A program made the translations under genes and the position numbers. DNA of 64,000 nt from an uncultured virus (IMG/VR IMGVR_UViG_3300008448_000047) (Duplodnaviria; Heunggongvirae; Uroviricota; Caudoviricetes). The number at the start of each line of letters is the position of its first letter. Position 1 is the first letter of the stretch. The notes under the pieces are model-generated. The model worked only from the letters and a program-made list of their open reading frames with translations. It had not been told where the DNA came from and did no database searches. The stretch is from IMG/VR virus record IMGVR_UViG_3300008448_000047, one strand, 5' to 3'. Shown here piece after piece: positions 18,587-34,872 of the stretch.

Positions 18587-18589
18587 TGT

Positions 18590-19631: not shown

Positions 19632-19848
19632 ACACCCTGAAGTAAAAAAAGAACCACGACCATCTCTACTTATCGCTTTAGGCGGAGTAGGGATAGCGGG
19701 TTCTTTTTATGGAAGTATTCTTTGGGTTGTGTTGTGGTTTGTTCGTTCTGCTGACATCGCAGAATGGAACGCCCCTTATTGGAAGTGTGCTATGACTGCC
19801 CTTGCCGTAAATGCCTTGCGCCTTTACGACAAAAAGGTATTCGACTAA
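19624..19848 (+). CDS. Small membrane protein
   Basis: Two hydrophobic segments. Confidence 0.55.
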   Translation: MPRHPEVKKEPRPSLLIALGGVGIAGSFYGSILWVVLWFVRSADIAEWNAPYWKCAMTALAVNALRLYDKKVFD

Positions 19849-19883
19849 GCCTCTTCCGCCACCGTCAAAGAGTTGTCCTCGTC

Positions 19884-20108
19884 TTATTCGGACTGACGGA
19901 ACACCATCAGTCCTGCGACTGCTGTGCTGTCAATGTGCGTTGGGTCTGCGAGTGCGATACCTGTCACCCACGCTTCTTTCGGTAGTGGCTGTGTCGGGTC
20001 ATCACCCACAATGCCACGCACCTTCTGTATCGCTTCGCTAATCGCTTCGCCATCTGTGTCGGCTTCTACATCTACGCCGACCATGACCTGAACACGGTAC
20101 TTTGCCAT
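19884..20108 (-). CDS. Hypothetical protein
   Basis: AAGGA RBS; KYRVQV...VEADTDGEAI. Confidence 0.6.
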   Translation of the reverse strand: MAKYRVQVMVGVDVEADTDGEAISEAIQKVRGIVGDDPTQPLPKEAWVTGIALADPTHIDSTAVAGLMVFRQSE

Positions 20109-20275
20109 TGTTTCCTTCTTTCTGCCCGTACCTTCCATACGGGTCGGGTGTCTTTCGTGCCTCTACGGGCTTCCTGTGGGGCGAGTTCAGGCGAGTGAGT
20201 GGCTGAAAGGGGGAAATGCCACCCACTCGCCACGCAATCGGGCAGGCTCACTACTGCGAACCTGCCCGATACGGT

Positions 20276-21811
20276 CTAGCGATAGGTGAGTTCGTGACCT
20301 GTCACGCTCTCGTACACACCTTTCATGTGTGACGGAACGATGGACTTCACTTTCTCGCCCTTTGACATGGCTTTCAGCATTGTGACTGCCTGCTCAGGTG
20401 TCTCACAGGTGTAGATACCGTGACGCTTGATGAGTGCCACGCACTCCATCACTAAGTCCTCACCCCAACTGTCACCCTTGCCTGTGACCCCACCATCGGT
20501 GACCCAAATGACAGGGGAAGTATTGCGCTGACGCTTTCCGATAGCCCAACGCAAGGCAGGTGCGTCCACTCCGTTGCCACCGTTCGGTGACGGAAGTTCT
20601 TTCACGCACTTGCCCTTGTTGGCGACCACATACAGGTTCGGGCGACTACTGCGCCCACCTGAATACTGCGCCACGAGTGCTGACGGTGCGCTCAACACCA
20701 TCTCCATCACTTCATCGTGTTCCAGCGACATAGAACCACTCGTGTCAATGAGTACCACGCCACCTGCGCCCTTCACAGTACGGTCAAAGATACGGCGTTC
20801 AGGGTCGGTGAGTAGGCGAGACATACGGCGTGGGTTACGCCCTGTCTGCGATGAGACACGCTTGCGTCCGATAGCACCCATCACATTACGCTCTAACGCT
20901 GGTGTGGAGATACGCAGTTCTTCCCACAAGGTCGCACGACCTTTCTTCGGGATAGTTCCACGACCCCAACGGTCATGTGTGAAGTTCTCGCTTGCCTTCT
21001 CTGTCGGAGACTTGCCATCTTCATCTTTGACTTCGCCTGACGGTGCGCCTTCGCCCTCTTTGCCTTCGCCCTCTTTTTGTGGCTGTGGCTTTCCTGTGGG
21101 GTTGTCACACAATGCGCCGACTTGTTCCTCTACCCACTTTGCGTAGTTCTCCACATAGCCAAATCCTGACAGGTGGAGACGAGAGTGAGTGGCGTGGAGT
21201 GATGGAGTAGAACGCTGGTTGTCCATTACAGAGCGAAAGTAGTTCTCGCCTGTGTGGGAAATCGTCTCCAACAGTTTCACCCACGATGGCTCGTGCTGTG
21301 CGACACCACGCAAGTATTGTTCGTATCCTGCCGTGCCACGAAACGCAATAGCGTCCATCACGCACGAGAGAAAGTCGCCCACCTCTGCTGTGCGCTTTCC
21401 TGCGAGATACTCGCTTCCGTCTGAAAGGTGAGTTGTTGGCTCAAATCCTGCGTAAGAACACAGGACATTGACACGCAGTTCCTCGCACACTACGAGCGTA
21501 GGTGCTTTGGCGTAGCCACGAGCCACCCACTTCTCAAACTGCTTCGCCGTAGGTGACACCTTTGCGTGTGTCATCTCGTGCGCTCGTATCACGCGAGAAT
21601 GTTCGGTGTCGTACATCGGCACACGCATCTCACGCAAGGTGACTTCCGTTGCTGGTTCACCACGCTTGGGTTGGACATTGACAATGTTCCAACGCTTCTC
21701 TGCGTCTTTCGCTGTGTTGTCTCCACGAGACAACATCTCAGGCTCAGGGTACTGTGGCGTAGTACCCTGAGCGATGTTCGCCGTAATCGGCGTTCCGTTT
21801 GACTTGCTCAC
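20276..21811 (-). CDS. vWA (MIDAS) protein with N-terminal HExxH metallopeptidase-like motif
   Basis: AHEMTH; LIDTSGSMS; WVTDG. Confidence 0.85.
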   Translation of the reverse strand: MSKSNGTPITANIAQGTTPQYPEPEMLSRGDNTAKDAEKRWNIVNVQPKRGEPATEVTLREMRVPMYDTEHSRVIRAHEMTHAKVSPTAKQFEKWVARGYAKAPTLVVCEELRVNVLCSYAGFEPTTHLSDGSEYLAGKRTAEVGDFLSCVMDAIAFRGTAGYEQYLRGVAQHEPSWVKLLETISHTGENYFRSVMDNQRSTPSLHATHSRLHLSGFGYVENYAKWVEEQVGALCDNPTGKPQPQKEGEGKEGEGAPSGEVKDEDGKSPTEKASENFTHDRWGRGTIPKKGRATLWEELRISTPALERNVMGAIGRKRVSSQTGRNPRRMSRLLTDPERRIFDRTVKGAGGVVLIDTSGSMSLEHDEVMEMVLSAPSALVAQYSGGRSSRPNLYVVANKGKCVKELPSPNGGNGVDAPALRWAIGKRQRNTSPVIWVTDGGVTGKGDSWGEDLVMECVALIKRHGIYTCETPEQAVTMLKAMSKGEKVKSIVPSHMKGVYESVTGHELTYR

Positions 21812-21817
21812 AATGCC

Positions 21818-22558
21818 CTACTTCTGTGGGGTCATTGTGTTGATAGCGATAGCGTCCACCACGCTCTTAGCACGGTCACGGAAAACCATTTGCGCCGCCT
21901 TTTTTGTTCCGAGTGCTGTACGCAGTTGGTCAAAGGCGTAGAACGCACGGAGAGAGATACGGCGTTCGCCTGCGTCTGCCATCTGACGGGCGTAGTCACG
22001 CAAGTCCTCGCTCAGACGGGCGAGTGCTGACGGGTGTGGCTCGTTGATACGGATACAGACGGGGAAACGGTCTTTGAGTGCCATTGGTAGGTCGCTCATC
22101 TGCTCAATGTTCGTGGTCATCACCACGCTGAAACCTGCGTTGGGGCGCAATACCTGACGGGTCTGTGGGTGTTCCCACTTTGCGCTTTCAGGGCTGTCTG
22201 TCATCGCCAGCAAGGTTGCGAACACATCGCCACCTGCCTTGTCAATCTCGTCAATAACGAGACGACCACCTGTGTTGCCATCGCCCTTCCACGCACGGAT
22301 AGCAGAGCCTTCCAGCCACGACCACGAGCCGTGGTCATTTGGTTGCCAGCAACCTGTTACATCTGCGTTGGTCATGTCATCGGTACAGATGAGACGGTGT
22401 GCGCCTGCTTCGGTGTTGCCGTATGTCAAGCCTGCGAATGTCTTGCCTGTTCCTGGCACTCCAAACAGAATGAGACGGTCTATGCCTGCTTCCAGCGCAT
22501 CATTGACTTCTTGCCAGCAGGCAGGAAGTGTGGTTGTTGTGTCTTGGACACTTGTCAT
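21818..22558 (-). CDS. MoxR/CbbQ-type AAA+ ATPase
   Basis: Walker A GVPGTGKT, Walker B VIDEID, MTTN, ALKDRF, ISLR. Confidence 0.88.
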   Translation of the reverse strand: MTSVQDTTTTLPACWQEVNDALEAGIDRLILFGVPGTGKTFAGLTYGNTEAGAHRLICTDDMTNADVTGCWQPNDHGSWSWLEGSAIRAWKGDGNTGGRLVIDEIDKAGGDVFATLLAMTDSPESAKWEHPQTRQVLRPNAGFSVVMTTNIEQMSDLPMALKDRFPVCIRINEPHPSALARLSEDLRDYARQMADAGERRISLRAFYAFDQLRTALGTKKAAQMVFRDRAKSVVDAIAINTMTPQK

Positions 22559-22709
22559 TGGTTTCCCCTTTCGTGGGAGTTTGTTGTGGGTGTGAAGTGT
22601 AGCCACATTGTTAGTGGCACACAACCTTGTTAGCCATCATTTCTAATGGCTCTCTATGTGGGGTGGGCGAGCATCTGCCGTGTCTCCCACCCCACACGAG
22701 ACTTTGTGA

Positions 22710-23123
22710 CTAGGCGACCTGCGCTGTGTCGGTGGACTTGGACTTTGCCTTCGCATCAGGCGAGATGGCTGTGGTACGCACCTGTGAGTAGGTGGTGACC
22801 TTTGTGATGGTGTCTGCGACTTCTTGTGAGACGATGCCCACCTGAACTGCGCTCTCCAACATTTCACCGTCCACTACGGGCTTGGTTACTTTCTTGTAGG
22901 TGGCAGGCTTCACGAGCATCGCCAACTTGTCTGCGTCATAGGACTTACGCTGTCCGTCCACGATGGCGACTTTGATGCCGTCCACAACGCTTGTGTTGAT
23001 GCCTGCGATGGCGAGTGCTTCACGCAACGCCTGCTCTGCTTCCTTCTTTTGTGCTTCTGCCTGTGCGCTGGCTTCTTTTGCCAACAGGTACAGGCGTGTT
23101 GCTTGCTCTACTGAGTGTGTCAC
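22710..23123 (-). CDS. Hypothetical coiled-coil protein (Gam/Gp157-like at best)
   Basis: AAGGA RBS; TTGACA-17-TAAGGT promoter upstream. Confidence 0.6.
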   Translation of the reverse strand: MTHSVEQATRLYLLAKEASAQAEAQKKEAEQALREALAIAGINTSVVDGIKVAIVDGQRKSYDADKLAMLVKPATYKKVTKPVVDGEMLESAVQVGIVSQEVADTITKVTTYSQVRTTAISPDAKAKSKSTDTAQVA

Positions 23124-23166
23124 GGCATTTCCTTCTTTCTTGGTAGGTGTCAAAGTGACAATGTGT

Positions 23167-23221
23167 ACCTTACAGGTGTCAATGGTAGTTGTCAATAGGT
23201 TTCTGTGTGTCGTTTGTCACA
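23167..23221 (-). promoter_or_regulatory. Sigma-A-type promoter with upstream CRP-like box
   Basis: TGTGACAAACGACACA (23221-23206); TTGACA-17 bp-TAAGGT. Confidence 0.7.
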
Positions 23222-23568
23222 CGCCTACCGACCTTGCCATCGGGCTGTTTGGTACAGGGTGAAAGATACAGGGTGTAAGGCACAGGCACAACACTCACAC
23301 AACATCTTTCTTCTGTGTCTGTTGTCACAGGGTCGGGCAGGCGCACAGGTACGCACACGCACGGGCAGGCGCACACACGCACGGGCGCAGGGGGCTTCTT
23401 CCACCACCGTCAGCCTTGTGAGCCCCGTTGGGCGAAGACGGCTCGCGGGGCTGTCACCCCAGATGTCGCCCCAGAAGTCGCATCTGGTTCAGCCGAAGTT
23501 TGGACTTGCTCAAAGTTTGGGGTTAGTCCGACTGTGATGTGTCCTATGTGATGTGTCCGACTAATCCC

Positions 23569-23613
23569 TGTGACAAACGACACATTGACATTGTGCCTTA
23601 CACTCTGTAACTT
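23569..23613 (+). promoter_or_regulatory. CRP-like box abutting sigma-A promoter
   Basis: TGTGACAAACGACACA-TTGACA-17 bp-TAACTT. Confidence 0.75.
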
Positions 23614-23647
23614 GTAATCACCTACTAGCCCACGAAAGGGGACAGAG

Positions 23648-24103
23648 ATGACCACATCATCACCTGTGCGTATGGCAGAACTTGCCCAGCGCACACTCAC
23701 TATGGAAGGGGGCGAAGGCTTCACTATGGAACAGGCGATACTGTTCGCATACTGCGCTGACGGTTTCCGTCTTCTCGCAACAGCAGAAGACATTTACGAA
23801 GCGTTGGAGAGCCTTCCACACATTCAGTCGCTCAAAGAAGACGACCAAGGCATTGGCATCATCACAACAGGTTGGGCTGCGCCACTCGGTGACAACGGAG
23901 AAGTAGAAGGCGCACCAAGCGCACACCCTGAGCGCAAGCGTGTACGCCTTTGCTCGTGCGTTGAGCGTGGTGGAAAAATGGGGTCGGCTCTCGCCTTTGA
24001 GACTGACCCTGACGACCTCGTGACAGACGAAGGCAACGGAACAGGCTCACTCGCTAACGCCTTGCTCTCTGCTCTCAACGCACTTCTCGCCAAGAACAAC
24101 TAA
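23648..24103 (+). CDS. Hypothetical cassette protein
   Basis: Own promoter, AAGGGG RBS and terminator; ends AKNN. Confidence 0.75.
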   Translation: MTTSSPVRMAELAQRTLTMEGGEGFTMEQAILFAYCADGFRLLATAEDIYEALESLPHIQSLKEDDQGIGIITTGWAAPLGDNGEVEGAPSAHPERKRVRLCSCVERGGKMGSALAFETDPDDLVTDEGNGTGSLANALLSALNALLAKNN

Positions 24104-24126
24104 ACCACAACCCACTTCCAACAGTT

Positions 24127-24160
24127 AGCCCTCACTTGCCTCGGCAGGTGGGGGCTTTCT
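24127..24160 (+). terminator. Intrinsic terminator
   Basis: GCCCTCACTTGC/GCAGGTGGGGGC hairpin plus T run. Confidence 0.65.
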
Positions 24161-24364
24161 GCTGTCCCCGAACTTCCCCACGAAGGGTCTTCCACCACCG
24201 TCAAAGTAGTGAAGACGGGGGTCGGTAGCCCCGGCGGGTTTTATTTAGGCCAGATAGTTCTGATGGCCGCTGCGCTGATGGCCGTGATGGTAGACAAAGC
24301 AAAACCCCCTGCTTCGCCAGCGTGAGACGAAACAGGGGGTTGAGCGTGACAGGGGTAGGAAAGA

Positions 24365-24646
24365 CTATCCCTTGTCGGTCTGTTGAGAACGGTAGAAGTC
24401 CATAGCGGGGACAGACATCTGCCCTTTATCTTCCAGTTCACGGGCGAACTTGACAAGGATAAGACCCATGCGCTCGTCATCTACCAAGTGATAGTGGAAG
24501 AAACGGTGCTTGGTGATGTCGTGTAGAACAGCCATGACAGCGTGTTCCCCCGTTGAGGCAAGCGTGTAGTAATGCTCGTAAAGCGTTTCCACTATTTCTT
24601 CATCTGTCCAGTATCGCCAACTGGCGAGGTCTACTCGTATGTCCAT
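24365..24646 (-). CDS. Hypothetical protein
   Basis: AAGGAG RBS; followed by a terminator hairpin. Confidence 0.65.
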   Translation of the reverse strand: MDIRVDLASWRYWTDEEIVETLYEHYYTLASTGEHAVMAVLHDITKHRFFHYHLVDDERMGLILVKFARELEDKGQMSVPAMDFYRSQQTDKG

Positions 24647-24849
24647 GTATCTTCTCCTTGTATTAGACCGAGTGATGAGCCGTTGTCCCACTTGACATGA
24701 ACAGTACCCATGTCGTCAATGTAGTCCACAACGCCTTCGTCACCACTTTGTAGTTTCGTGTATGGGTCTGAGCAACGGATAAGGCGCACCCGCTTTCCAG
24801 CAAGTGCGCCCTTCACCCATTCGTTTGCGAGTTGGTCAATGCGTTTCAT
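24631..24849 (-). CDS. DUF4314-like protein
   Basis: RVRL...DPY..L..G.EG.V..IDD.GT.HV.WDNGSSLGLI.GED. Confidence 0.75.
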   Translation of the reverse strand: MKRIDQLANEWVKGALAGKRVRLIRCSDPYTKLQSGDEGVVDYIDDMGTVHVKWDNGSSLGLIQGEDTWTYE

Positions 24850-25442
24850 TAGCAAATCTGAAAGCCACCGCAGTTTGCTAAGAAAGTAGCGAACTCACGG
24901 ACATTCTTCTTGTCAAACGGATAGTTCTTCGCAAAGTGTTGCTGACCGCCAGTTCCCCCACAGGCGTTACATTCTTTGGTTTCTTCCAGCCAGCCTTCGG
25001 GCTTCTCAACAGGTGTGTAGGTCGGCAAACAACCATTACCTTCGGTGGCTATCTCGTTGGCAAAGGCTTCCGCAATGCTGTATTCCACAGAAGGCGTGTA
25101 GTCGCCATTGTTGTCGGGGTTGGTGTACCAAGTGCGCTTACCAGTCGCCTGACAATGAACACAGGGGCGAATAGGCAAAGACGCAAGCCACTCGTTGCGT
25201 GTCTGCTCGTAGTTGTCCAGCGTTCCGTCACGCAGGCTCTTGCGTAGAACTTTGGCAAGTTCCTTCGCATCTTCTCCGTCAAGCCCGTCTCCGTCATTGG
25301 AGTATCCGTTCTCAACCATGCTCGTAAGTTCAGGTGCGACAAACTCGCAGAACTCCCACAGGGGACGCCACCACCACACATTGTTGCGGAAGTATTCGCC
25401 CTTTTCATTCTTTGGGTCTTGCCCAAATACGTCCATTCCCAT
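24849..25442 (-). CDS. Hypothetical protein with DnaJ-like zinc finger
   Basis: YFRNNVWWWRPLW; CxxCxxTG x2; CGGFQIC end. Confidence 0.75.
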   Translation of the reverse strand: MGMDVFGQDPKNEKGEYFRNNVWWWRPLWEFCEFVAPELTSMVENGYSNDGDGLDGEDAKELAKVLRKSLRDGTLDNYEQTRNEWLASLPIRPCVHCQATGKRTWYTNPDNNGDYTPSVEYSIAEAFANEIATEGNGCLPTYTPVEKPEGWLEETKECNACGGTGGQQHFAKNYPFDKKNVREFATFLANCGGFQIC

Positions 25443-25576
25443 TCCGTTCCCCTTATCTATTAGGTGTTGAGTGGGCGGGTGTGCCTTCCCTACGACATAC
25501 CCCCTTCCCTTCTAGTCCCCCTACGGGCAGGTCGCTTGCGAACTCGTAGGCTAGTTGGGTCGGTTGCCCACATAGA

Positions 25577-25633
25577 AGGGTACAGGTGTCAAGCACAGTT
25601 AGCAAGTGTCATTTGTCACAGAACAGGTGTTCG
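25577..25633 (-). promoter_or_regulatory. Promoter with CRP-like box and adjoining LexA-like box
   Basis: TGTGACAAATGACACT, TTGCTA-17-TACCCT; AGAAC-AGGT-GTTCG at 25620-25633. Confidence 0.65.
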
Positions 25634-25976
25634 GTGAGACACATTTGGTGCGACTGTCTCGTGAGACTAACTGGGGGAAAGTGTCTCAGACTGGGAGAAG
25701 GGTCTTCCACCACCGTCAAAGTCCTGTGGGAGCCCCGCGGGACAAAAATCCCGTCCGGGACTTCCGCCCCATCTGTGTTGCCATCGGCGACATCGGCGAC
25801 ATCGGGTTGCGTTGCTTGCCGACAGCCACTAAGGTATGCCCATGTCATTAGTCTCTATTGTTGTAGTCATCGCACTCATCGCATTGTTCGCAAGTGGCTA
25901 ATGTCACACAATAACTATTTGACAAGTGGCTACTAACTTTGTAGTCTTAGATTCTCAACTCACAAAAGGGGGAATC

Positions 25977-26333
25977 ATGACTGATTCTGTCATTGAGTGG
26001 GAAGAGGTGAGCAACACTTCAGACGAAGTGGAGTGGGACTTTGCGACAGACTTGTTCGCTGAGGTTGCCAACACGCTCATTGCCCATAATGAGGAACTTC
26101 ACGAAGGCGACACTTGGTGGCGCATTGAGGGATTCCCATTGTGGAGTGGTGGGCTTGACGGTATTTTCCACGCCGATACGCCGATGAAGTTGTTGGAAAG
26201 TATTACCGTTCGTTCGGAATGGTCATTGCGCTACACGCTTGACCCCGAAACAATGGTGCTTACTTGTCACCTCTCTCACCACGATGCAAGCGGAACTTTT
26301 ACGGTGAAGGCAATGCCTAATCCAGACCGCTAA
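25977..26333 (+). CDS. Hypothetical cassette protein
   Basis: TTGACA-17-TAGTCT promoter, AAGGGGG RBS, terminator. Confidence 0.7.
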   Translation: MTDSVIEWEEVSNTSDEVEWDFATDLFAEVANTLIAHNEELHEGDTWWRIEGFPLWSGGLDGIFHADTPMKLLESITVRSEWSLRYTLDPETMVLTCHLSHHDASGTFTVKAMPNPDR

Positions 26334-26355
26334 CAACTGAACAACACGGCGAACT

Positions 26356-26384
26356 GCCCGTCTCCGAAAGGGGGCGGGCTTTTT
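26356..26384 (+). terminator. Intrinsic terminator
   Basis: GCCCGTCTCC-GAAA-GGGGGCGGGC-TTTT. Confidence 0.75.
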
Positions 26385-26548
26385 GCTTGCCCAACGACTG
26401 CCCGTGCGCCGTCTCCCGCCACCGTCGGAAGGTGCGAGCCCCGGACGGTCGCATCGCAGCGCGGGGCTATCGGGCGCATCTGCGCCGTCGCCACTCAGTT
26501 TCGTCGCCACCTGCCAACTCGCCACCTGTCTGTCACCCCTGTCTCGCC

Positions 26549-26592
26549 TGTGACAAACGACACTTGACAAACTGTGTTATCGCCTGTATCTT
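26549..26592 (+). promoter_or_regulatory. CRP-like box abutting sigma-A promoter
   Basis: TGTGACAAACGACAC-TTGACA-17 bp-TATCTT. Confidence 0.75.
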
Positions 26593-26635
26593 CTACCTTG
26601 TAATACACACCAACTACCCATAGGGGGGTACACAA

Positions 26636-27211
26636 ATGGAAGAAGAACAGACACCATCTGAACTATTGGCTTCTGTAATCGCTCGCGCGATGGAAGTCAA
26701 GTACGAGATGTGCGTGGACAACAATGGAATGTGCGATACGCCACCTGTACTGCTCGGTGAACTACCGACAGGCGAAGGCTTCATCGCACCCGACTACAAC
26801 GATGGACACCCAACCGACACCTTGCCGTTGATGCTGTCAGCACTCGCTGAAACGATGATGGCACAGTTCTCATCGGTTCAATGGAAGTGGCTTGCGTATG
26901 TCGTAGAAGGCTACGCAAAGCCAACACACGAAGGGGTGGAGAGCCTGCCCGAAGATTGGAGCCGTGGAATGTACGAAGAAGAGTACAAGACGAACCCAAC
27001 AAGCGATGTGCGTGAAGGGCTTATCGTGGGTCTGTATCCGTGGGAAGGACAAGCCATCGGAACAACCGTGTTCTATCGCTACAACGACAAGGGCTTGCCT
27101 GTCTATGACGAGCCTGAGATGTTGGAAGGCGAGATGGAAGGGACTGTCGCAGACATCTTCAAGGCGTTCACGATGGCGTGTAAGACAATCACCAACGCCA
27201 AGAACAACTAG
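26636..27211 (+). CDS. Hypothetical cassette protein (possible paralog of 46853..47482)
   Basis: Own promoter, RBS, terminator; ends AKNN. Confidence 0.75.
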   Translation: MEEEQTPSELLASVIARAMEVKYEMCVDNNGMCDTPPVLLGELPTGEGFIAPDYNDGHPTDTLPLMLSALAETMMAQFSSVQWKWLAYVVEGYAKPTHEGVESLPEDWSRGMYEEEYKTNPTSDVREGLIVGLYPWEGQAIGTTVFYRYNDKGLPVYDEPEMLEGEMEGTVADIFKAFTMACKTITNAKNN

Positions 27212-27229
27212 ACCGTACCCCCTACGGAA

Positions 27230-27271
27230 GGGGGGTCGCCTGCCAAGTACGGTGGGCGACCCCCCTTTTTT
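27230..27271 (+). terminator. Intrinsic terminator
   Basis: GGGGGGTCGCC...GGCGACCCCCC-TTTTTT. Confidence 0.75.
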
Positions 27272-27352
27272 CGTGTACCCAACCAGCCCTCTTCCACCAC
27301 CGTCAAAGCAAACCCGTTGCGCTTAGCAGCCCCGCCCGGTATTATTTATGAG

Positions 27353-27574
27353 ATGTCGTACGTTCGCTATGTGTGTGAGTTCTGTAATCACGAAGTCCAG
27401 CCAGGGCAAAGTGGAACAATGAAGTTGGTGTTGGCGTGGGTGCGTTCAGACAACAACACAGGAATAAAGGGTGTGAAGAACCAGCACAAGTACGCTCATT
27501 CCATCTGTGTGGAAACAGAGACTAAGCGTGGTGGTAAGCGAGAAGGCTCAAACGGCGAGCAGACGCTGTTTTAG
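27353..27574 (+). CDS. Small zinc-binding protein
   Basis: CEFC...HSIC. Confidence 0.6.
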   Translation: MSYVRYVCEFCNHEVQPGQSGTMKLVLAWVRSDNNTGIKGVKNQHKYAHSICVETETKRGGKREGSNGEQTLF

Positions 27575-27621
27575 AGTGCGAACAGCAACGCAATCGCAAC
27601 GAGAACGATGATGGCAGTCAC
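27571..27621 (-). CDS. Hydrophobic micropeptide MTAIIVLVAIALLFAL
   Basis: GTGA overlap with stop of 27618..28007; four similar peptides nearby. Confidence 0.65.
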   Translation of the reverse strand: MTAIIVLVAIALLFAL

Positions 27622-28007
27622 TTTGTATCCTTAGATACGAGCACCCAGCCACCTTTGCCGTCTCCGATGTAGGTCTCTTTGCCTTTCCAACCCCAAGCCC
27701 AGCGACAGCATGAAGGGTCAAGGGTACAGTCATCATTACTGTCAAAGTCAGCGTGATGAATGAAGTTCGGGTGACAGCCACCACGAAGTTTCTCTCCGAG
27801 CAACGGAAAAGCATCTAGAAGTTTGACAACGCAGTCGTGACACATACTGATAAAGCGACTTTCATCGCTACCAAGTAGGACGCCCACATTGTCGTCAAAG
27901 CCACCGTAGTAGCCGAAGTGGTCAATAGGCAAAGACCAGCCCCCGTCAGGAAGGCTGTCTTGTTGTGTGTTCGGTTGCTCTACACCACAGGTATCGCAGG
28001 TAATCAT
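27618..28007 (-). CDS. Cys-rich hypothetical protein
   Basis: CDTC...GYYGGFDD...CHDC. Confidence 0.7.
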   Translation of the reverse strand: MITCDTCGVEQPNTQQDSLPDGGWSLPIDHFGYYGGFDDNVGVLLGSDESRFISMCHDCVVKLLDAFPLLGEKLRGGCHPNFIHHADFDSNDDCTLDPSCCRWAWGWKGKETYIGDGKGGWVLVSKDTK

Positions 28008-28015
28008 TGTGTCTT

Positions 28016-28219
28016 TCAGGGTTGGTAGATGTTGTACCCGTATGGGTCGTACAGAGTTGTCGTGGTCTCACACGGGTAGTGAAAATACTCGCAGTCAGGG
28101 ACGCCTTGTTTCTCATCTCCGATAGATGCGATAAGAAATAGAGTTGCGCCGATGAGAGTTGTCCAAAAGACAAACCTCACGAACGAACGCACCTTGTAAT
28201 AGATAGGTGGGTGGCTCAT
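28016..28219 (-). CDS. Small membrane protein with CEYFHYPC motif
   Basis: Single TM; paralog at 31801. Confidence 0.7.
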   Translation of the reverse strand: MSHPPIYYKVRSFVRFVFWTTLIGATLFLIASIGDEKQGVPDCEYFHYPCETTTTLYDPYGYNIYQP

Positions 28220-28425
28220 TCCTTCTCCCAACTACGGAAGTATTCAGGGTCGCCGACCCAAAATGCGCCTTCACCATTTGCCTTGTTCAGCCATTCGTCA
28301 AGGTTGGCATGAAGGAAGGCACGGTACCCCTCGGTCACCTCATCTGTGTTGTGCTTACAGATGTCCGACTGAACATTGTCGCCATCGGCATTGGTGTAGA
28401 TGATTTCTCCACAGAACTCTTTCAT
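28216..28425 (-). CDS. Hypothetical protein, probably leaderless
   Basis: ATG about 8 nt after the -10 TACCAT of a CRP-box promoter (28476-28433). Confidence 0.6.
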   Translation of the reverse strand: MKEFCGEIIYTNADGDNVQSDICKHNTDEVTEGYRAFLHANLDEWLNKANGEGAFWVGDPEYFRSWEKE

Positions 28426-28747
28426 GGGGTGAATGGTACAGGTGTCAAGCACACATGACAAGTGGCAGTTGTCACATCGTTGAGAGACAAGCAAGGGTGA
28501 GGTCGTCAAGACGGGGACACATCACGATGAGTTCTTCCACCACCGTCAAATCTCTCTGGGAGCCCCGATGGGCCGCTGCGGCCGTCCGGGACTTCCGCCC
28601 GCACTCGTGCGCCTGCGCCCGTGCGCCCGTGGGAGTTTCTCGGCTCGGCTGTCGGGGTTGGCTCGGACTGCCTCGCCTGTCGTGTGACAAACGCCACTTG
28701 TGTTAGTGCTGTGTTGCCTGTACCCTGTCAGGTGTAAGGGGGTGATT

Positions 28748-29110
28748 ATGAAAGCAACCAAAACAGACCTATCGCTTATGGCGTTACTCTGCTCAGACCG
28801 TGAAGGTCGCCCGTGCGATACGGGCGAAGTCTTAGCCCAAGTGGGCAAGATGAACTTTCTCGCTGTGTGCGGTGGCAAGTGGGCGAAGGTTTACGATTCA
28901 GGCATGGAGACTGTCGGCGTGTTGATGCTCTGCGGAGAATCTCGCGCGGTGGAAGTCGTGCTAGACCCGTGGGATACCTACACAGTGCGCCGTGTGCGCC
29001 TTGTGACCCGTGGAGAACTGAAGGGTTCAATCGTTGTGGAGTCGCAAGTTTCAGATGTCTATTGTGACAACTTGAGCGAAGTCGTCTATTCCGCTTCCTG
29101 CTGGAAGTAA
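28748..29110 (+). CDS. Hypothetical cassette protein
   Basis: CRP-like box at 28683, AAGGGGGTG RBS, terminator at about 29134-29166. Confidence 0.7.
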   Translation: MKATKTDLSLMALLCSDREGRPCDTGEVLAQVGKMNFLAVCGGKWAKVYDSGMETVGVLMLCGESRAVEVVLDPWDTYTVRRVRLVTRGELKGSIVVESQVSDVYCDNLSEVVYSASCWK

Positions 29111-29652
29111 CCAACAACCAAAACAACCGAGCAAGCCCGCCGTGTGCCCCCCGCACGGCGGGCTTTGCTTTGCCCGTGTGCCTGTGACCTTGACCCTTGC
29201 CCGTGGTGCGCCGTCTTCCGCCACCGTCAAAGTAAGTGAGATGGGGGCGAGAGCCCCGCTACCCCGCCCCCATCAAGCTCAGCTCAGCTCGACGGGCACG
29301 CTCAGCTCGAGGATTTTCTGCGTTTGTTTTTTGAAAAAGTCACGCTGCGTGGTCAAAGTTTGTCAAAACTCACGGAGAGTGGTCATTTTTGCTCGACTTT
29401 ACTTTTTAGTTCGAGAAAAAGCAAGCGAAGAGGGCCAACTTCCGGCTTTCTGGCCAGATGTCCCTGGCAGCCCCGATGCGGCCGCACGGCCGTCCGGGAC
29501 TTCTGCCCAGATGGCATCGCCAGACGGAGTTGCTCAGGTTGTCCATCGCTCTTGCTCGGTCAAGCCAAACTCGTGCTCGTCTCGGTGTGACACACGACAC
29601 GTTGCGACTGTGGCGTACAGGGTGTAGTTTGCTATTACCTAAGGAGGGGTTT

Positions 29653-29865
29653 ATGCCGGAGTTCTATCCGGAAGAAACCAAAGTCCAAAAGTCAAAACGA
29701 TTTGCTAAATCCCAAGGAAAGATAGTAAAAGCATTTAGTCACACAAAGTGTGGTAGGTGCGGAACCATCATTGGTGAAGGCGTTGAGTGTATTTGGCTCA
29801 ATGGAAAAGGTTGCTTCCACAAGCAAGGCGAATGTCCAAAGAAAGAAGAACAACAAGAAGAATGA
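29653..29865 (+). CDS. Small zinc-binding protein
   Basis: AAGGAGG RBS; CGRC...HxxxxC; CRP-box promoter at 29586. Confidence 0.7.
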   Translation: MPEFYPEETKVQKSKRFAKSQGKIVKAFSHTKCGRCGTIIGEGVECIWLNGKGCFHKQGECPKKEEQQEE

Positions 29866-29912
29866 CAGCGTTGATAGTTGCGCTGGCAGTTCTTTTATTG
29901 TTGGCAATCTGA
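29862..29912 (+). CDS. Hydrophobic micropeptide MTALIVALAVLLLLAI
   Basis: ATGA overlap; followed by terminator. Confidence 0.65.
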   Translation: MTALIVALAVLLLLAI

Positions 29913-30413
29913 ACGAAAGCCCGTCACAGAAATGTGGCGGGTTTTTTTGTGCCCGTCTTCCACCACCGTCAATGTAAATGAGACTGGGTCATCAGCCCCG
30001 CTGCTAACCCAGTTGATGTCCAGCATCTGAGTTCCTCACGACGTACGACATCGGATTATCAACTTTGTTTTCTTTTGTTTTTTGGAAAACGCTCACTCTG
30101 CGTGGTCGGAAAGTCAAAAAGTTCACGGAAAGTGGCAAAAACGAAGCGAAAGTCAAGTTCTTTGGAGTTTTTTGCTTGGCGCAAGCCCCCGTCGCTCACC
30201 CGTCGTACGTGCGATGGGTTTTCCCCGCGGTAGCCCCGTTTACCCAGTGCGGGGAAACGGGACTGTTCCGTGGTTTCTGGCCCTGGACGGCCCGGCGGCC
30301 CGGAAGTCGGACTGGCGCAGCGCAACTCGGACTGACCTGAGGCTCGGCTGTGACAAACGACACTTTGACATTTGCGCTTGACACCTGTAGCCTGTAGGCA
30401 AGAAGGGGGGGAA

Positions 30414-30581
30414 ATGAAGTTTTATGCCAACATCACGCTCAACATAGATGAGTTTGATGCAGATAACGAAGAAAAAGCAAAAGAAATAATAGATTCGTAC
30501 ATCACAAGCCTTGCAAACACTGAAGATGAAAGTCTTTCGTGGCAAGAAATGAACTACGAAGTGAAAGAAGCCACTGAATGA
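30414..30581 (+). CDS. Small acidic hypothetical protein
   Basis: CRP-box promoter at 30349 (TTGACA-17-TAGCCT); RBS. Confidence 0.65.
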   Translation: MKFYANITLNIDEFDADNEEKAKEIIDSYITSLANTEDESLSWQEMNYEVKEATE

Positions 30582-30634
30582 GCATCGCCATTACGGCGTT
30601 TACTCTTTTTTTGTTGTTCTCCGCCGTGAACTAA
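30578..30634 (+). CDS. Hydrophobic micropeptide MSIAITAFTLFLLFSAVN
   Basis: ATGA overlap; followed by terminator. Confidence 0.6.
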   Translation: MSIAITAFTLFLLFSAVN

Positions 30635-30845
30635 GAACCGCCCGTCCCTGAAAGGGGGCGGGTTTTTCTTTTCCCCGTCTTCCGCCACCGTCGTAAAAGT
30701 GCCATCACGAAGGTCGTGAGCCCCGCTGATTTACCAGATGCTCGTGTCTGGTTCGCCAGACAAACCGTGAACTTCGGCGACTCCAACTCGTGCCTGTGAC
30801 AAACAACACTTGACACTCCTTGTGCTGTTCAGTACACTCGCCCGT

Positions 30846-31130
30846 ATGCAAATAATCACCACTATCAACGAACCGATACCTTTTATCGGAACGGTTGATG
30901 AAATGTTAGCCAACTACAACACTCACCTATGGTGGCAAGACCCCGAATCGTGGGAATCGGTATGTGACCGCTGCGCCTGTAAAGGTTGGCACAAGGCTGC
31001 CAAGTATCCGTGTGGGACAGAGCCACCTCGCCGTGATGTCGTTGTGTGGGTTGATGCAGAAGGTAATCAGCATCGCAACCACCCGACCCTTGCTGCTTTG
31101 GGTATCGCTAGCGATGAGATTGTAGAGTGA
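30846..31130 (+). CDS. Hypothetical Cys/His protein, probably leaderless
   Basis: CRP-box promoter at 30795 (TTGACA-17-TACACT); ATG 7 nt after -10. Confidence 0.65.
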   Translation: MQIITTINEPIPFIGTVDEMLANYNTHLWWQDPESWESVCDRCACKGWHKAAKYPCGTEPPRRDVVVWVDAEGNQHRNHPTLAALGIASDEIVE

Positions 31131-31177
31131 CCGCTGTCATTTTGACGGTTGCTGTTTTCTTGCTGCTTGCTGTCTAG
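31127..31177 (+). CDS. Hydrophobic micropeptide MTAVILTVAVFLLLAV
   Basis: GTGA overlap; followed by terminator. Confidence 0.65.
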   Translation: MTAVILTVAVFLLLAV

Positions 31178-31800
31178 TAGATAATCCACTTGCCGCCCTG
31201 CTTAGTCGTGGGGCGGCTTTGTGCTGCCCGTAATCGCCTCGCATCGCCGTCTCTCTGCCCGTCTCGGCGACTTGCGGCTTGATGGTGTCCCTAAATACCC
31301 TGCTTCCAACCTGAGCCTTTCTAGATGTCTAGCGTTGCTCAAAGTTGGAACATCTCAGCCCGTCTTCCGCCACCGTCAGTTTATTGCGGGTAGTCGCGGG
31401 GCTCTCGAGCGCCAGCCGCACGGGGAGTTGCACGGGCGGCAGACCTCAGATGGCATCGGCTTTCGGGCAGTTTTTCGGTTTTCTTATTTTTTTAGAAACT
31501 GAAAAACCCGAAATCCTTTATTTTGGCGACTTCACGAACTTGACTTTTGAGTTTTTCGTGTTATGTTGGCAAACTTTGCCACACCCCCTTCTTCCGCCCG
31601 CGTTAGCCCCGTAAAGCTCGAAGAGCTGCACGGGACTGTCAGTCTTCTGGACGACGGAGTTGTTCTTCGGCTTCGGCTTGTTGCTGGCTCGGCTTGGAAC
31701 TTCGGAAGGCTTCGCAACTTTCTTTTCGGAAAGACTTGACATCGTGCCTTGTTGCTTGTAAGGTACAGGGTGGGTGGAGTGCCTAGCGAAAGGAAATGCT

Positions 31801-31998
31801 ATGTACTACTTCGTACGCTCGTGCGTGCGCTGGGGTTTACTAATGCTCACTCTTACTCTTGCTGTTTTTGGTTGTTCCAAACTCGCAAGCATAGATGAGA
31901 CGGAAATACCTGAGTGCGAGTACTTTCACTATCCCTGCCCGTGGGATACGACAGTACCCGACCCTTATTTTGACCCAACAACAGAGATAGGGGGGTGA
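31801..31998 (+). CDS. Small membrane protein with CEYFHYPC motif
   Basis: TTGACA-17-TAAGGT promoter, AAGGA RBS; paralog at 28016. Confidence 0.7.
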   Translation: MYYFVRSCVRWGLLMLTLTLAVFGCSKLASIDETEIPECEYFHYPCPWDTTVPDPYFDPTTEIGG

Positions 31999-31999
31999 G

Positions 32000-32053
32000 A
32001 TGGTTGCCGTTGTGGTTGCTTTGACAGTTTTTGCTTTATTGTCGGTTGGATAA
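32000..32053 (+). CDS. Hydrophobic micropeptide MVAVVVALTVFALLSVG
   Basis: Starts 1 nt after upstream stop, GGGGGTG RBS; followed by terminator. Confidence 0.6.
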   Translation: MVAVVVALTVFALLSVG

Positions 32054-32219
32054 ATACCCGAACACGGGGGCGCATCGTTATTCGGTGCGCCCCTTTTGTT
32101 TTGCCCGAACTCAGCAACCTGCTTGGGTGTTTTTTCTGCTTCGCAGTCCCGGCTCCAAACAAGAGCCTTGTTTGAAGCCCCGGAGTTGTTATTTTGTGTT
32201 GTCGCCGTAGAATCTACAT

Positions 32220-32564
32220 ATGCCAACACAGAAACTCTGGTCGGACCGCCACCCGGATTATGGAGTGCCTTATAAGGTCATCCAAAGAAATTCCTGGGCC
32301 GAAACCATTTTGAGCTACGCAGCTTTTACCGTGCGAGTCCGTCCACCCGGATATTTCACACATGATAGTTACTGCGAGTTCAGGATGGGAAACCTGCCGC
32401 GCAAAGAGTCATTCCAGTCAGCCATCAAGAAGCTTGTTGGTCTGGGGTATTTAATCGAGACATCGCCAGGTAGCTACCAAATAACATCAAAGGGGCTAGA
32501 CGCCAACCTGCGCATCTCGAGACGAAACGCTAAAGCGCGTAACCGCATTGCCGACGAGGATTAA
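32220..32564 (+). CDS. Winged-helix-like hypothetical protein
   Basis: AIKKLVGLGYLI...YQITSKG. Confidence 0.6.
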   Translation: MPTQKLWSDRHPDYGVPYKVIQRNSWAETILSYAAFTVRVRPPGYFTHDSYCEFRMGNLPRKESFQSAIKKLVGLGYLIETSPGSYQITSKGLDANLRISRRNAKARNRIADED

Positions 32565-32878
32565 TACTTTCTCCACTCGCCTTCGTTGTCGTCGTTGCCA
32601 TCCCAGTAGGTACAGACACTTCCTAAATGCTTTGCGGCAACGTCGATGGCGGGGAACTGCTTGGAGAGAGCCTCGTGCAAGTTTTCCAGCCACCCGGCAC
32701 ACCATATGTCTTCTGACATGTAAGCCATGAGGCGTGGCATCATCCATCTGACCGCCTGGAGTAGTTCGAGGTACTCAATTGTATGCGGGTCATTTTTGTA
32801 GCCAGCATTAAGAGCCACGTGCAGTTCGGTCCAAGACCGTGCTACGTCTTCAGGGTCATAAAAACGCTCTTCGCTCAT
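32561..32878 (-). CDS. Hypothetical protein
   Basis: AAGGA RBS; MSEDIWCAGW. Confidence 0.65.
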   Translation of the reverse strand: MSEERFYDPEDVARSWTELHVALNAGYKNDPHTIEYLELLQAVRWMMPRLMAYMSEDIWCAGWLENLHEALSKQFPAIDVAAKHLGSVCTYWDGNDDNEGEWRKY

Positions 32879-32916
32879 TGTTTTTTATTCCTTAGCGGAT
32901 TAGAATTGATATCGCA

Positions 32917-34872
32917 ATGGATGATAGCACTCTCTTTTTATGGGACGACCACCTAGCGGCGTCCTTCCCTTATAACGCTGAGCAAGTAGCGCAGGTGAAA
33001 GCTGTGCCGGGGGCAAAGTGGGACAAGGTCGCCAAAGTATGGCGCATACCGATGACCAGTCTTCATGAAGCCAGGGTGTTTGCCGAACTACATCGGTTCA
33101 AAATCGATAACGAAGTTCTCAAGTTCAACCTGCCGGAGTCAACCAACAAGGCTCAGGGTGTTTATGTCGACGATGATTGGGTGTACCTAAGTTTCAATTA
33201 CGACCCGGTAAAGGTTCGGTCGGTTAAATCGTTGCCATCAGTAACATGGCACCCACCAACCAAAGCGTGGCGTGTACCGCTTGCTGCCATCCACGACGCC
33301 ATCGCATGGGCAGAGAAGTTCGATGAACCCATAGCCGAACGTGTTCGAGCTATTGCTGGGGTTATGGAGCGGAGCAAAAACGAAACCATTGCGGCGTCAC
33401 GAGCAAAAGATGCGGAAATCGAAATACCAGGACTGCAGGGCAACCTTCTGCCGTACCAGCGAGCCGGAGTTAAGTATGCCGCCAATGCGCGTCGTTGTTT
33501 TATCGCAGACGACATGGGGCTTGGAAAAACCATGCAGGCCATCGCTACTCTTGAATACGTTCACGATTCCTACCCAGCCGTAGTTGTATGTCCTCCGACA
33601 CTGGTGCTCAACTGGGCTAAGGAGTACGAGAAGTGGCTCCCACACAGACGGGTTGCAACGGTAACAAACCGCAAGGACCTGCCGGAGCCGGGCACTTATG
33701 ATGTTGTCGTTGTGGGGTATAGCAATATTGACCACTGGCAAAACCATCTTAAGGGCCATCGGTCATATGTGTATGACGAGAGCCACTACGCAAAGACGCC
33801 AACAGCAAAACGTACCAAGGCGGCCATAAAGATGGCGCGTTCCGCTCCCAAAGAAGGAATAGTTCTGTGTCTAACCGGCACGCCAATCACAAACCGACCA
33901 GCCGAATACGCGGCTCAGCTTGACATCTTAGGTAACCTAAACAAATTCGGTGGCCTATGGGGTTTCTACCGACGATACTGTGCGGCTTTCCGTGACAGAT
34001 TCGGGCAGTGGCACATCGACGGCTCGTCTCACCTTGATGAACTCAACGACATGCTGCGTAGTCAGTGCTACATCCGTCGTATTAAAGCCGATGTTCTCGA
34101 AGAGCTGCCGCCAGTTCGCCACTCAAAGATTGTCGTTGCGCCCAACCCGACAGCCATGGCCGAGTACACCAAAGCCGAAGATGACATTATTGAATACATG
34201 GCCAATCGCGCTAAAGAGTTGGCTAAAGAACTCGGCAAGTCTCCATATTCCGCTGCTGTCGTAGCCCGCATCAAAGCAGAGTCAAACGAACACCTAGTTC
34301 GCATTTCTGTTCTGCGCCGACTAGCCGCAAAAGCGAAGATGGATACAGTCTTTGAGTGGATTGATGGCAAGCTGGCCGGTGGCGACAAGGTTGTTGTCGC
34401 TGCACATCACCGCGAAATTGTCGACCTCATTGCAAAGAAGTATGGGGGCTTGAAAATTCAGGGTGGCATGAAGGTAGAAGAAGTCGAAGAGAACAAGCGC
34501 ATCTTCCAAGCTGAATCCATTGACGAAGCACCCGTGATGGTGCTCTCGATTCAGGCTGCCAAGACAGGTCACACACTCACGGCAGCACAGGATGTTGTCT
34601 TTGTAGAAATGCCATGGACACCTGCTGATGTTGACCAGACCTACAGTCGGTGCCATCGCCTTGGGCAGAAAGGCTCAGTGATGTCCACATACATTCTTGC
34701 CGAGGGAACTATCGACGAAAAGATTTATGGTCTTATCGAATCAAAGCGCGACGTTGTGAATCAAGCAACCGAAGGTAGCGATGTAGAATTTAGTGATGGA
34801 AACCAACAGCTTGTGCTCGATTTCCTTGCCGAAGGCCTGCGCCGGAGCAAGATGAATGGAGTGGATGGATGA
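32917..34872 (+). CDS. SNF2-family helicase with two N-terminal HARP-like domains
   Basis: ADDMGLGKT, DESH, LTGTP, SRCHRLGQ; two F.Y....V..VK..P...W....K.WR.P repeats. Confidence 0.9.
   Translation: MDDSTLFLWDDHLAASFPYNAEQVAQVKAVPGAKWDKVAKVWRIPMTSLHEARVFAELHRFKIDNEVLKFNLPESTNKAQGVYVDDDWVYLSFNYDPVKVRSVKSLPSVTWHPPTKAWRVPLAAIHDAIAWAEKFDEPIAERVRAIAGVMERSKNETIAASRAKDAEIEIPGLQGNLLPYQRAGVKYAANARRCFIADDMGLGKTMQAIATLEYVHDSYPAVVVCPPTLVLNWAKEYEKWLPHRRVATVTNRKDLPEPGTYDVVVVGYSNIDHWQNHLKGHRSYVYDESHYAKTPTAKRTKAAIKMARSAPKEGIVLCLTGTPITNRPAEYAAQLDILGNLNKFGGLWGFYRRYCAAFRDRFGQWHIDGSSHLDELNDMLRSQCYIRRIKADVLEELPPVRHSKIVVAPNPTAMAEYTKAEDDIIEYMANRAKELAKELGKSPYSAAVVARIKAESNEHLVRISVLRRLAAKAKMDTVFEWIDGKLAGGDKVVVAAHHREIVDLIAKKYGGLKIQGGMKVEEVEENKRIFQAESIDEAPVMVLSIQAAKTGHTLTAAQDVVFVEMPWTPADVDQTYSRCHRLGQKGSVMSTYILAEGTIDEKIYGLIESKRDVVNQATEGSDVEFSDGNQQLVLDFLAEGLRRSKMNGVDG

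Follow-up and report, generated by a model that had tools for sequence, protein, structure and literature searches.

Modulators that consist of a single membrane helix, such as KdpF, MgtS/MgtR, AcrZ, CydX, the papillomavirus E5 protein, and the "traptamers" built of Leu and Ile only, have 26 to 50 residues, are present in a single copy, and usually carry polar or charged ends. Promoter and stem-loop repeats (PeSLs) were reportedly described by Comeau et al. in 2014 as mobile regulatory cassettes of T4-type phages. PeSLs of T4-type phages are reported to mediate the shuffling of orphan genes and are described as non-coding (Arbiol et al. 2010, PMC2839356). Ibs toxins, which belong to the Ibs/Sib type I systems of Escherichia coli and Salmonella, act in the inner membrane. 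IbsC, with 19 residues, has been reported to depolarize cells within minutes and to be toxic even at 15 residues (PMC8309996), and for IbsA, also of 19 residues, an inhibition of the Fo sector of the ATP synthase has been reported (bioRxiv 10.1101/2025.05.26.656083). Here, we analyze a stretch of 64,000 nucleotides from an uncultured virus (IMG/VR record IMGVR_UViG_3300008448_000047), called the window in the following, which carries a family of very short hydrophobic open reading frames (micro-ORFs A to G), most of them starting on the stop codon of an upstream gene. Judging from their conservation, the micro-ORFs are almost certainly real conserved genes and not chance ORFs. The interpretation that we favor, and hold to be rather probable, is that they encode translationally coupled, dosage-amplified membrane peptides, that is, that they are separately initiated micro-genes for 16 to 18 uncharged residues.

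Micro-ORFs coupled to the stop codons of upstream genes

An initial annotation of the window had listed five micro-ORFs, A to E, and recomputation returned the same coordinates and translations for all of them. Two copies, F and G, were found beyond these five, for a total of about seven:

27571-27621, minus strand: micro-ORF A, 16 codons, GTG start, GTGA overlap with the stop of a 129-codon gene
29862-29912, plus strand: micro-ORF B, 16 codons, ATG start, ATGA overlap
30578-30634, plus strand: micro-ORF C, 18 codons, ATG start, ATGA overlap
31127-31177, plus strand: micro-ORF D, 16 codons, GTG start, GTGA overlap
32000-32053, plus strand: micro-ORF E, 17 codons, ATG 1 nt past the upstream stop (TGAgATG)
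16323-16376, minus strand: micro-ORF F, 17 codons, ATG start, TAATG overlap with a 103-codon gene
25842-25901, plus strand: micro-ORF G, 19-codon subtype, or 21 codons from an ATG at 25836

The start-to-stop offsets of micro-ORFs A to E are −4, −4, −4, −4, and +1, in agreement with the four stop overlaps (GTGA at 27621, ATGA at 29862 and 30578, GTGA at 31127) and the one start 1 nt after a stop (32000) that had been annotated. In all, 6 of the 7 copies start overlapping or abutting the stop codon of an upstream gene. Micro-ORF A closes a minus-strand operon of three genes, micro-ORF E has a G-rich Shine-Dalgarno sequence within the last codons of its upstream gene, and micro-ORF F sits within a minus-strand operon and has an orthologue in the complete relative G003. 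Micro-ORF G has no clear coupled upstream gene; its stop abuts the next promoter-like box, and it is kept in the relatives L017, L021, and L022. The genes upstream of A to F are as follows:

27618-28007, minus strand: upstream gene A, 129 residues, Cys-rich orphan
29653-29865, plus strand: upstream gene B, 70 residues, Cys-rich orphan
30414-30581, plus strand: upstream gene C, 55 residues, acidic orphan
30846-31130, plus strand: upstream gene D, 94 residues, orphan
31801-31998, plus strand: upstream gene E, 65 residues, hydrophobic N-terminus ending in Cys
16376-16687, minus strand: upstream gene F, 103 residues, orphan

That these main genes are unrelated, as had been annotated, was borne out by an all-against-all BLASTP comparison of upstream proteins A to F, with an E value of at least 0.1 for each pair; the only true relationship was that of gene E (31801-31995) to a paralogue at 28019-28219.

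The micro-ORFs were followed through 48 IMG/VR helicase loci of relatives, each with up to 10 kb of upstream sequence; the comparative inference draws on about five diverged lineages. A micro-ORF follows 4 of 4 gene A homologues with at least 51% identity, 6 of 6 gene B homologues (4 of 4 close ones and 2 of 2 at 34 to 36% identity), 2 of 2 gene C homologues, gene D in 7 of 7 distinct contexts, gene E orthologues in 7 of 7 contexts with at least 60% identity, and 2 of 2 close gene F homologues. The way in which start and stop are joined varies: the junction after gene A reads GTGA, TAA-ccc-GTG, or TGATG among orthologues, that after gene D GTGA, TAAGTG, or ATGA, and that after gene E TGA-g-ATG or TGA followed by a 10-nt spacer with its own G-rich Shine-Dalgarno sequence. 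These junctions demonstrate, at the level of the nucleotide sequence, that the predicted start of translation is tied to the preceding stop, which it overlaps (ATGA, GTGA, TAATG, TGATG) or from which a short spacer with its own Shine-Dalgarno sequence separates it.

For most copies, the phase with respect to the upstream gene is −1 (offsets −4, −1, +2), as would suit a C-terminal membrane anchor that some molecules of each upstream protein acquire by frameshifting or stop read-through. However, the offsets across orthologues are −4, −1, 0, +1, +2, +3, and +10 and thus cover all three phases, and in several copies the micro-ORF frame is closed 0 to 3 codons 5′ of its start. Furthermore, no common slippery sequence is visible at the junctions, and every copy has an ATG or GTG start, with a dedicated Shine-Dalgarno sequence where a spacer is present. 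The three phases and the short open frames led us to discard a frameshift or read-through tail, to which we assign a very slim chance, and argue for separate, coupled initiation of the micro-ORFs.

Selection on the peptide pattern

The view that the peptide pattern persists in spite of diverged DNA was supported by orthologues and paralogues alike. Differences at codon positions 1/2/3 between the micro-ORFs of the window and their orthologues number 16/1/17 for L016, 31/12/38 for L017, and 32/12/27 for L022. In paralogue pairs from three genomes (405 codons), they number 230/99/277, with 0.58 nonsynonymous (dN) and 2.8 synonymous (dS) substitutions per site, and the frames are kept in the relatives. 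Codon position 2 of the micro-ORFs is T in 63% and C in 32% of cases. Third positions are near saturation, while each residue retains its hydrophobic or small nature.

D, E, K, R, H, Q, and W are entirely missing from the 23 distinct peptides (385 residues), which have lengths of 16 (13 peptides), 17 (3 peptides), or 18 residues (7 peptides); their codons are almost all for Leu, Val, Ile, and Ala. Ala is found at position 3 and at position 9 in 19 of 23 peptides each, Leu at position 13 in 22 of 23, Leu or Phe at position 14 in 22 of 23, and a small residue at position 15 in 19 of 23, which gives the consensus M-[S/T/V]-A-h-[I/V]-h-x-h-A-h-h-h-L-[L/F]-[S/A/T]-h (h, hydrophobic). Paralogue identity is 0.31 to 0.58, compared to 0.14 to 0.18 in within-peptide shuffles, and in each of four genomes, 0 of 2,000 shuffles reached the observed value; the family therefore shares a register and not composition alone. 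In the L017 lineage, Ser occupies position 2 in all four copies and is encoded by AGT twice, TCT, and TCA, whereas position 2 is mostly Thr or Val in the copies of the window and L022. A Ser from two unrelated codon families is hard to reach by gene conversion and suggests common selection on all copies. Taken together, the codon-position differences and the junctions show, as far as comparison of sequences can, that the micro-ORFs are coding, separately initiated, and under constraint at the level of the peptide.

Short hydrophobic signaling peptides of the SHP/ComS type, known from Gram-positive bacteria, are similar to the micropeptides in size and hydrophobicity. It is therefore imaginable that the phage peptides are exported, trimmed, and sensed by infected cells or the host in the manner of a pheromone. 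Many diverged paralogues per genome are ill-suited to one specific signal, however, no candidate for a receptor or regulator was noticed (no search was aimed at one), and most of the 23 peptides have no processing-type motif, which makes a signaling role very unlikely, though a little less so than the anchor discussed above. A membrane peptide made from several diverged genes remains the interpretation that we prefer.

Excess over chance and restriction to one clade

To count ORFs of this kind, we used a filter for 14 to 22 codons, a mean hydropathy of at least 1.8, and D, E, K, and R allowed in the last two residues only; as coupled, we counted a start at −4 to +12 nt from the stop of a frame that is open for 40 codons or more. 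The window contains 8 coupled micro-ORFs, compared to a mean of 0.365 (standard deviation, 0.6; maximum, 3) in 200 Markov-1 random windows, 0 of which reached 8. One of the 8 matches (43889-43963, minus strand) is not a family member: it is a 24-codon hydrophobic ORF between the ribonucleotide reductase gene and tRNA-Lys, present only in near-identical relatives and missing from the list of matches in G003. Another ORF, at 27446-27499 on the minus strand, is hydrophobic enough for the filter but was dropped as spurious, being antisense to a conserved plus-strand ORF and having no long coupled frame (24 codons).

Real genomes are a better null than random windows. G003, a complete relative, has 137,811 bp and direct terminal repeats; of its 7 coupled matches, 6 lie in the cassette region at 90.8 to 107.4 kb, beside its 15 copies of the junction motif described below, and the lone coupled match across the other ~121 kb has a TTG start. 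G004 (169 kb), from a clade with 67% helicase identity, has four variant copies grouped at 27.0 to 31.7 kb and four weaker matches elsewhere. A degenerate form of the consensus was found in 47 places in IMG/VR, 24 of them in this clade, and 24 of these 24 stop after 16 to 19 codons; of the other 23, 2 (one sequence, twice) do so, and the rest run for 21 to 83 codons. Among bacterial and archaeal genomes, 0 of the 120 matches listed (from 14 of 64 collection parts, of an estimated ~580) stop after 16 to 19 codons, and 105 of the 120 exceed 30 codons. Metagenome contigs, mostly the same contigs as in IMG/VR, yielded no new lineage of the window-type family. As judged by these scans, the family, in this definition, does not extend beyond this phage clade.

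The ORFs are very short and lie under any gene-caller cutoff, and one may ask whether they arose by chance in T-rich sequence before terminators. This explanation is refuted by the excess over random windows, the retention among orthologues, the codon-position bias, the clustering in G003, and the length specificity of the pattern scan, and we give it next to no credence.

The L017-type lineage has, between cassettes D and E, an extra hydrophobic ORF of 14 codons with ATGA coupling, which is missing from the window; its sites are L021 8700-8744, L018 621-665, L244 3334, L245 2172, and L286 2047.

Terminators and a possible action in cis

The initial annotation had placed the four plus-strand copies B to E directly before terminators, and a strong hairpin followed by a T run is indeed found after each of them:

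29915-29950, plus strand: intrinsic terminator after B, 14-bp stem and T run (fold)
30640-30672, plus strand: intrinsic terminator after C
31192-31225, plus strand: intrinsic terminator after D
32066-32104, plus strand: intrinsic terminator after E

The hairpins with their T runs, at about 29915-29946, 30640-30663, 31192-31217, and 32066-32094, have 10 to 14 base pairs, and the distance from the micro-ORF stop to the terminator stem is about 5, 5, 14, and 12 nt for B, C, D, and E, respectively. A position at the cassette end before a terminator thus holds for these four copies and fails as a general rule, since no terminator lies 3′ of A, F, and G (3 of 7 copies).

The terminators raise the possibility that translation matters in cis, with ribosomes that run up to the terminator tuning termination or read-through or protecting the 3′ end of the mRNA, and the peptide as a by-product. 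Four of the 7 copies stop 5 to 14 nt before a strong terminator (4 to 20 nt in orthologues), coupling guarantees ribosome delivery, and the codons, nearly all for Leu, Val, Ile, and Ala, resemble those of branched-chain amino acid leader peptides, which are rich in Leu, Val, and Ile codons; the arrangement may be likened to such an attenuator leader moved to the 3′ end. However, this does not fit the three copies that have no terminator after them, and the stop-to-stem distance of 4 to 20 nt across orthologues speaks against a fixed geometry. In addition, the terminator folds on its own in 4 of 4 cases, with no alternative pairing predicted between the micro-ORF and the 5′ arm. An action in cis would also leave unexplained the absence of charged residues, the length of 16 to 18 codons, and the persistence of Ala3, Ala9, and Leu13 through saturated synonymous change. 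We therefore consider it improbable. An attenuator leader peptide of the ilv/leu type proper was rejected: the ORFs do not form a 5′ leader but follow a gene and are followed by a terminator and the next promoter, the 4 of 4 hairpins stand alone with the micro-ORFs forming local hairpins only, and the spacing is variable.

In a fold of cassette B (29850-29905), the start codon of the micro-ORF is enclosed by a helix between U-rich sequence from the middle of this ORF and the purine-rich end of the gene before it. In this single cassette, translation of B would depend on ribosomes opening the helix.

The micro-ORF as left edge of the junction unit

All seven micro-ORFs lie within or at the edge of a cassette array of ~19 kb, marked by a repeated 15-mer:

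12957-31377, plus strand: cassette array, 17 same-strand copies of the 15-mer TCTTCCRCCACCGTC

With up to 2 mismatches allowed, TCTTCCRCCACCGTC has 17 copies in this span, all on the plus strand, at a chance expectation of 0.17. Every copy stands shortly 3′ of a terminator or gene end, and most have a strong terminator before them and a repeated promoter-associated box after them. Cassette content varies between close relatives. In L022 and L023, the sequence is near-identical from the micro-ORF start through the terminator, the 15-mer, and beyond, and the upstream genes are unrelated; the breakpoint falls within about 5 nt of the micro-ORF start codon (one case), which marks the micro-ORF as the left edge of the shared inter-cassette unit. 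Upon swaps of the upstream gene, the micro-ORF would thus appear to travel with the terminator, 15-mer, and promoter junction.

Such mobility could also mean that the micro-ORF is a passenger of a junction module (terminator, 15-mer, hairpin, and promoter) that is shuffled like a PeSL and brings the phage little or no benefit. The L022/L023 pair and the 17-fold repetition of the junction elements favor this explanation, and PeSL recombination of this kind has been documented (PMC2839356). On the other hand, paralogue DNA is too dissimilar to provide homology for recombination (third positions differ in 277 of 405 codons), the 15-mer and the cassettes occur without micro-ORFs in clades with 58 to 61% helicase identity, and half of the junctions in the window are without one. 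Purifying selection on the peptide pattern is not expected of a neutral hitchhiker. A mere passenger is therefore unlikely, about as unlikely as an action in cis, and we return to a peptide that is itself selected.

Proposed function of the micropeptides

The peptides probably act on the host membrane, and the membrane effector suggested in the initial annotation is plausible. In our model of coupled, dosage-amplified membrane peptides, ribosomes that finish the upstream gene would re-initiate on the micro-ORF, and each cassette transcript would thus also give one peptide. Six or seven copies would sum to a high dose during expression of the orphan array, probably early. The released peptide would then enter the host cytoplasmic membrane spontaneously as one short helix. 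Given the length of the ribosomal tunnel, a chain of 16 to 18 residues is released before it leaves the tunnel, which makes co-translational targeting unlikely. In the membrane, the peptide might perturb membrane energetics or bind a membrane protein target; the small residues at positions 3, 9, and 15 are position specific and suggest helix packing. We speculate that its action may be comparable to that of the 19-residue Ibs toxins and may serve host takeover, the exclusion of rival phages, or a block of membrane-bound defense.

A more far-reaching version of this model, which we put forward as possible but doubtful, is that of a "coding PeSL": the junction unit would carry its own 16-residue effector gene and add peptide dose with each orphan gene acquired. 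The peptide would be not a generic pore former but a specific transmembrane ligand of, for example, the Fo sector, the respiratory chain, or a membrane-bound anti-phage effector, with residues 3, 9, and 15 as contacts and the parallel change from Thr to Ser tracking the host target. The alternative of a cassette addiction module, offered in the initial annotation, is not supported: no antidote or antisense partner was found, the promoter scan for the latter being a weak test, and half of the neighboring cassettes as well as the distant relatives are without a copy.

Several observations weigh against the favored interpretation. The codon-position signature proves selection on in-frame codons, not that the released peptide acts, and 16 residues are barely enough for a helix to cross a bilayer. 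No copy is found in about half of the neighboring plus-strand cassettes (e.g., those ending at 24103, 26333, 27211, and 29110). No micro-ORF follows the gene A homologues at 37 to 46% identity (0 of 4) or the gene F homologue in G004 (0 of 1). Whatever the shift, the variant family of the 67% clade (L034, G004) has an identity of 0.15 to 0.21 to the window-type family, close to what composition alone gives, and may thus be analogous or too diverged to judge homology. In the helicase-upstream flanks of relatives with up to about 65% helicase identity, no such family was found, with L259 as one possible exception; its absence from distant relatives means that the family is dispensable for the lineage. 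Finally, the helicase of the window has 31 to 37% identity at best to those of cultured phages (Arthrobacter phages and others), which leaves no usable cultured relative.

In the more distant L259 contig (62% helicase identity), a coupled hydrophobic ORF of 17 codons lies ~275 nt before the helicase (position 3204), and the contig also has two copies of the 15-mer, which hints at a trait reaching beyond the two clades analyzed.

At a length of 16 residues, the micro-ORFs would rank with the shortest conserved protein-coding genes known from phages. Their peptides have no Lys or Arg and are therefore invisible to tryptic proteomics, and they are also missed by gene callers. Early-type regions of phages can thus hide dosage-amplified families of micropeptides, and regulatory junctions that shuffle orphan genes can themselves be coding. 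If membrane active, the peptides would provide a minimal natural scaffold for how very short helices depolarize or target bacterial membranes and a new candidate class of host takeover, exclusion, or anti-defense factors. Other phage genomes could be examined for the signature used here, namely few changes at codon position 2, a junction phase that varies, and confinement to a single genome region, together with a length-filtered degenerate-pattern scan as its fourth part.

The phage and its cassette array

Replication, structural, and auxiliary genes, identified by PHROG matches, mark the window as part of a large uncultured freshwater phage:

1806-4488: tail proteins, PHROG match
32917-34872: helicase, PHROG match
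40398-42194: primase, PHROG match
44101-46026: ribonucleotide reductase, PHROG match
60351-61694: major head protein, PHROG match

Positions 27000-33000 have no blastn match among cultured-phage records; the nearest record, G001, is 100% identical across them. Sequencing runs with a matching stretch carry the labels lake water or freshwater, and none of the runs listed is recorded as RNA. The window has 10 tRNA genes (43709-54564), and 5 of these (Leu-TAG, Leu-TAA, Ile-TAT, Thr-TGT, and Met-CAT) are for residues that dominate the micropeptides; the micro-ORFs use CTA, TTA, ATA, and ACA codons that match the phage tRNAs, which may be coincidence.

The array resembles a series of self-contained orphan-gene cassettes, which occupy both strands, and none of 11 cassette proteins reached the curated cutoff of Pfam. 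From the architecture, the cassette genes are probably expressed early. TCTTCCRCCACCGTC is one-stranded in 17 of 17 cases in the window (e.g., 29214, 29956, 30678, and 31363) and in 15 of 15 cases in G003 (91446-108974), keeps its strand even beside genes on the opposite strand, and is also present in relatives with 58 to 61% helicase identity that have no micro-ORFs. Its strand invariance suggests something other than an ordinary part of a promoter or terminator, for example a signal for recombination, replication, or phage-specific transcription.

The promoter-associated box GTGACAAACRNCACTTGACA was found in plus-strand and inverted copies:

26546-26569, plus strand: box GTGACAAACRNCACTTGACA
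28680-28703, plus strand: box GTGACAAACRNCACTTGACA
30346-30369, plus strand: box GTGACAAACRNCACTTGACA
30792-30815, plus strand: box GTGACAAACRNCACTTGACA
25575-25620, inverted: box GTGACAAACRNCACTTGACA
28431-28476, inverted: box GTGACAAACRNCACTTGACA

In both orientations, the box lies directly upstream of or overlaps −35-like hexamers, and it is probably the common promoter and operator of the cassettes. Promoter matches of the form TTGACA-17-TAnnnT are found at 26564 and 30810. In the latter (30810-30838), the −10 hexamer ends 8 nt 5′ of the gene D start codon (ATG). Gene D is without a Shine-Dalgarno sequence, and its mRNA may therefore be leaderless.

Non-coding spacers of 450 to 580 nt extend from a terminator to the next gene (29112-29652, 29950-30413, and 31225-31800). 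They hold conserved blocks with a hairpin of the AGCCCCG...CGGGAC type (repeat families D7 and D10) as well as A/T-rich stretches with repeated GTCAAA-like words, have no family match in Rfam, and could be undescribed regulatory RNAs or protein-binding arrays. Gene E (31801-31998, plus strand) has a paralogue at 28019-28219 on the minus strand (65 to 67 residues, 39% identity, E value of 1e-11). Both have a hydrophobic N-terminus, which in one ends in a lipobox-like ...G-C, and a Cys-containing C-terminal motif in common; they may be exported or membrane proteins of the cassette array.

Comparison with known systems

In size and chemistry, the phage peptides appear closest to Ibs-type toxins. 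Like Ibs (18 to 19 residues), they are very short, single, and almost wholly hydrophobic peptides with multiple copies per genome, and with 16 to 18 residues and zero charges, they correspond to the very small, hydrophobic single-helix peptides of type I toxins. They fail, however, in the organization of a type I system. Type I toxin genes have their own promoter and a structured leader for silencing; the phage ORFs are without a transcription unit or leader of their own, most of them starting on the stop codon of an unrelated gene (6 of 7 starts overlap or abut an upstream stop). When the whole window was compared to Rfam at gathering thresholds, the only matches were the 10 tRNAs, with no Sib or other known antitoxin RNA among them, and a scan for consensus promoters, a weak test, found no minus-strand promoter beside the plus-strand copies. 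Membership in the Ibs type I family, to which the initial annotation had pointed, is thus not supported, given the missing transcription unit and the missing match to a known antitoxin RNA. Also unlike Ibs, the phage peptides have no charged residue whatsoever and are encoded not on a chromosome but in a lytic-type phage region. At an E value of up to 1, Pfam has no family for copy G (21-residue form) or for the 24-residue ORF at 43892-43963.

With single-helix modulators, the micropeptides share a minimal hydrophobic helix, in which a few small residues could pack against a larger membrane protein. In contrast, modulators of the KdpF, MgtS, and AcrZ type are longer (26 to 50 residues) and single copy and usually have polar or charged ends.

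The organization of the array, on the other hand, resembles that of the PeSLs. Both have a repeated composite intergenic unit with a stem-loop terminator and a sigma-70-like promoter that flanks orphan genes in a hyperplastic region, and in both, the units mark the points of gene swaps between close relatives (PMC2839356). In the window, the repeat of terminator and promoter is represented by the seventeen 15-mers and by GTGACAAACRNCACTTGACA with four direct and further inverted copies (families D6 and D9), the variable region with flanked orphan genes is the cassette array itself, and a swap breakpoint inside the repeated unit was seen in one case, L022 versus L023. PeSLs are, however, non-coding elements of T4-type phages, whereas the unit described here opens, in many copies, with a conserved protein-coding micro-ORF and also has a one-strand 15-mer and 450 to 580 nt of further conserved non-coding sequence. 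In the main text of PMC2839356, the terms "hydrophobic" and "small ORF" have 0 occurrences each, and a literature search of limited reach returned no description of multicopy hydrophobic micropeptides coupled to the ends of phage cassettes.

In sum, the comparison indicates that the architecture of the cassettes resembles that of PeSLs except for a left edge that is coding, and that the micro-ORFs would represent small membrane peptides in a new genomic arrangement.

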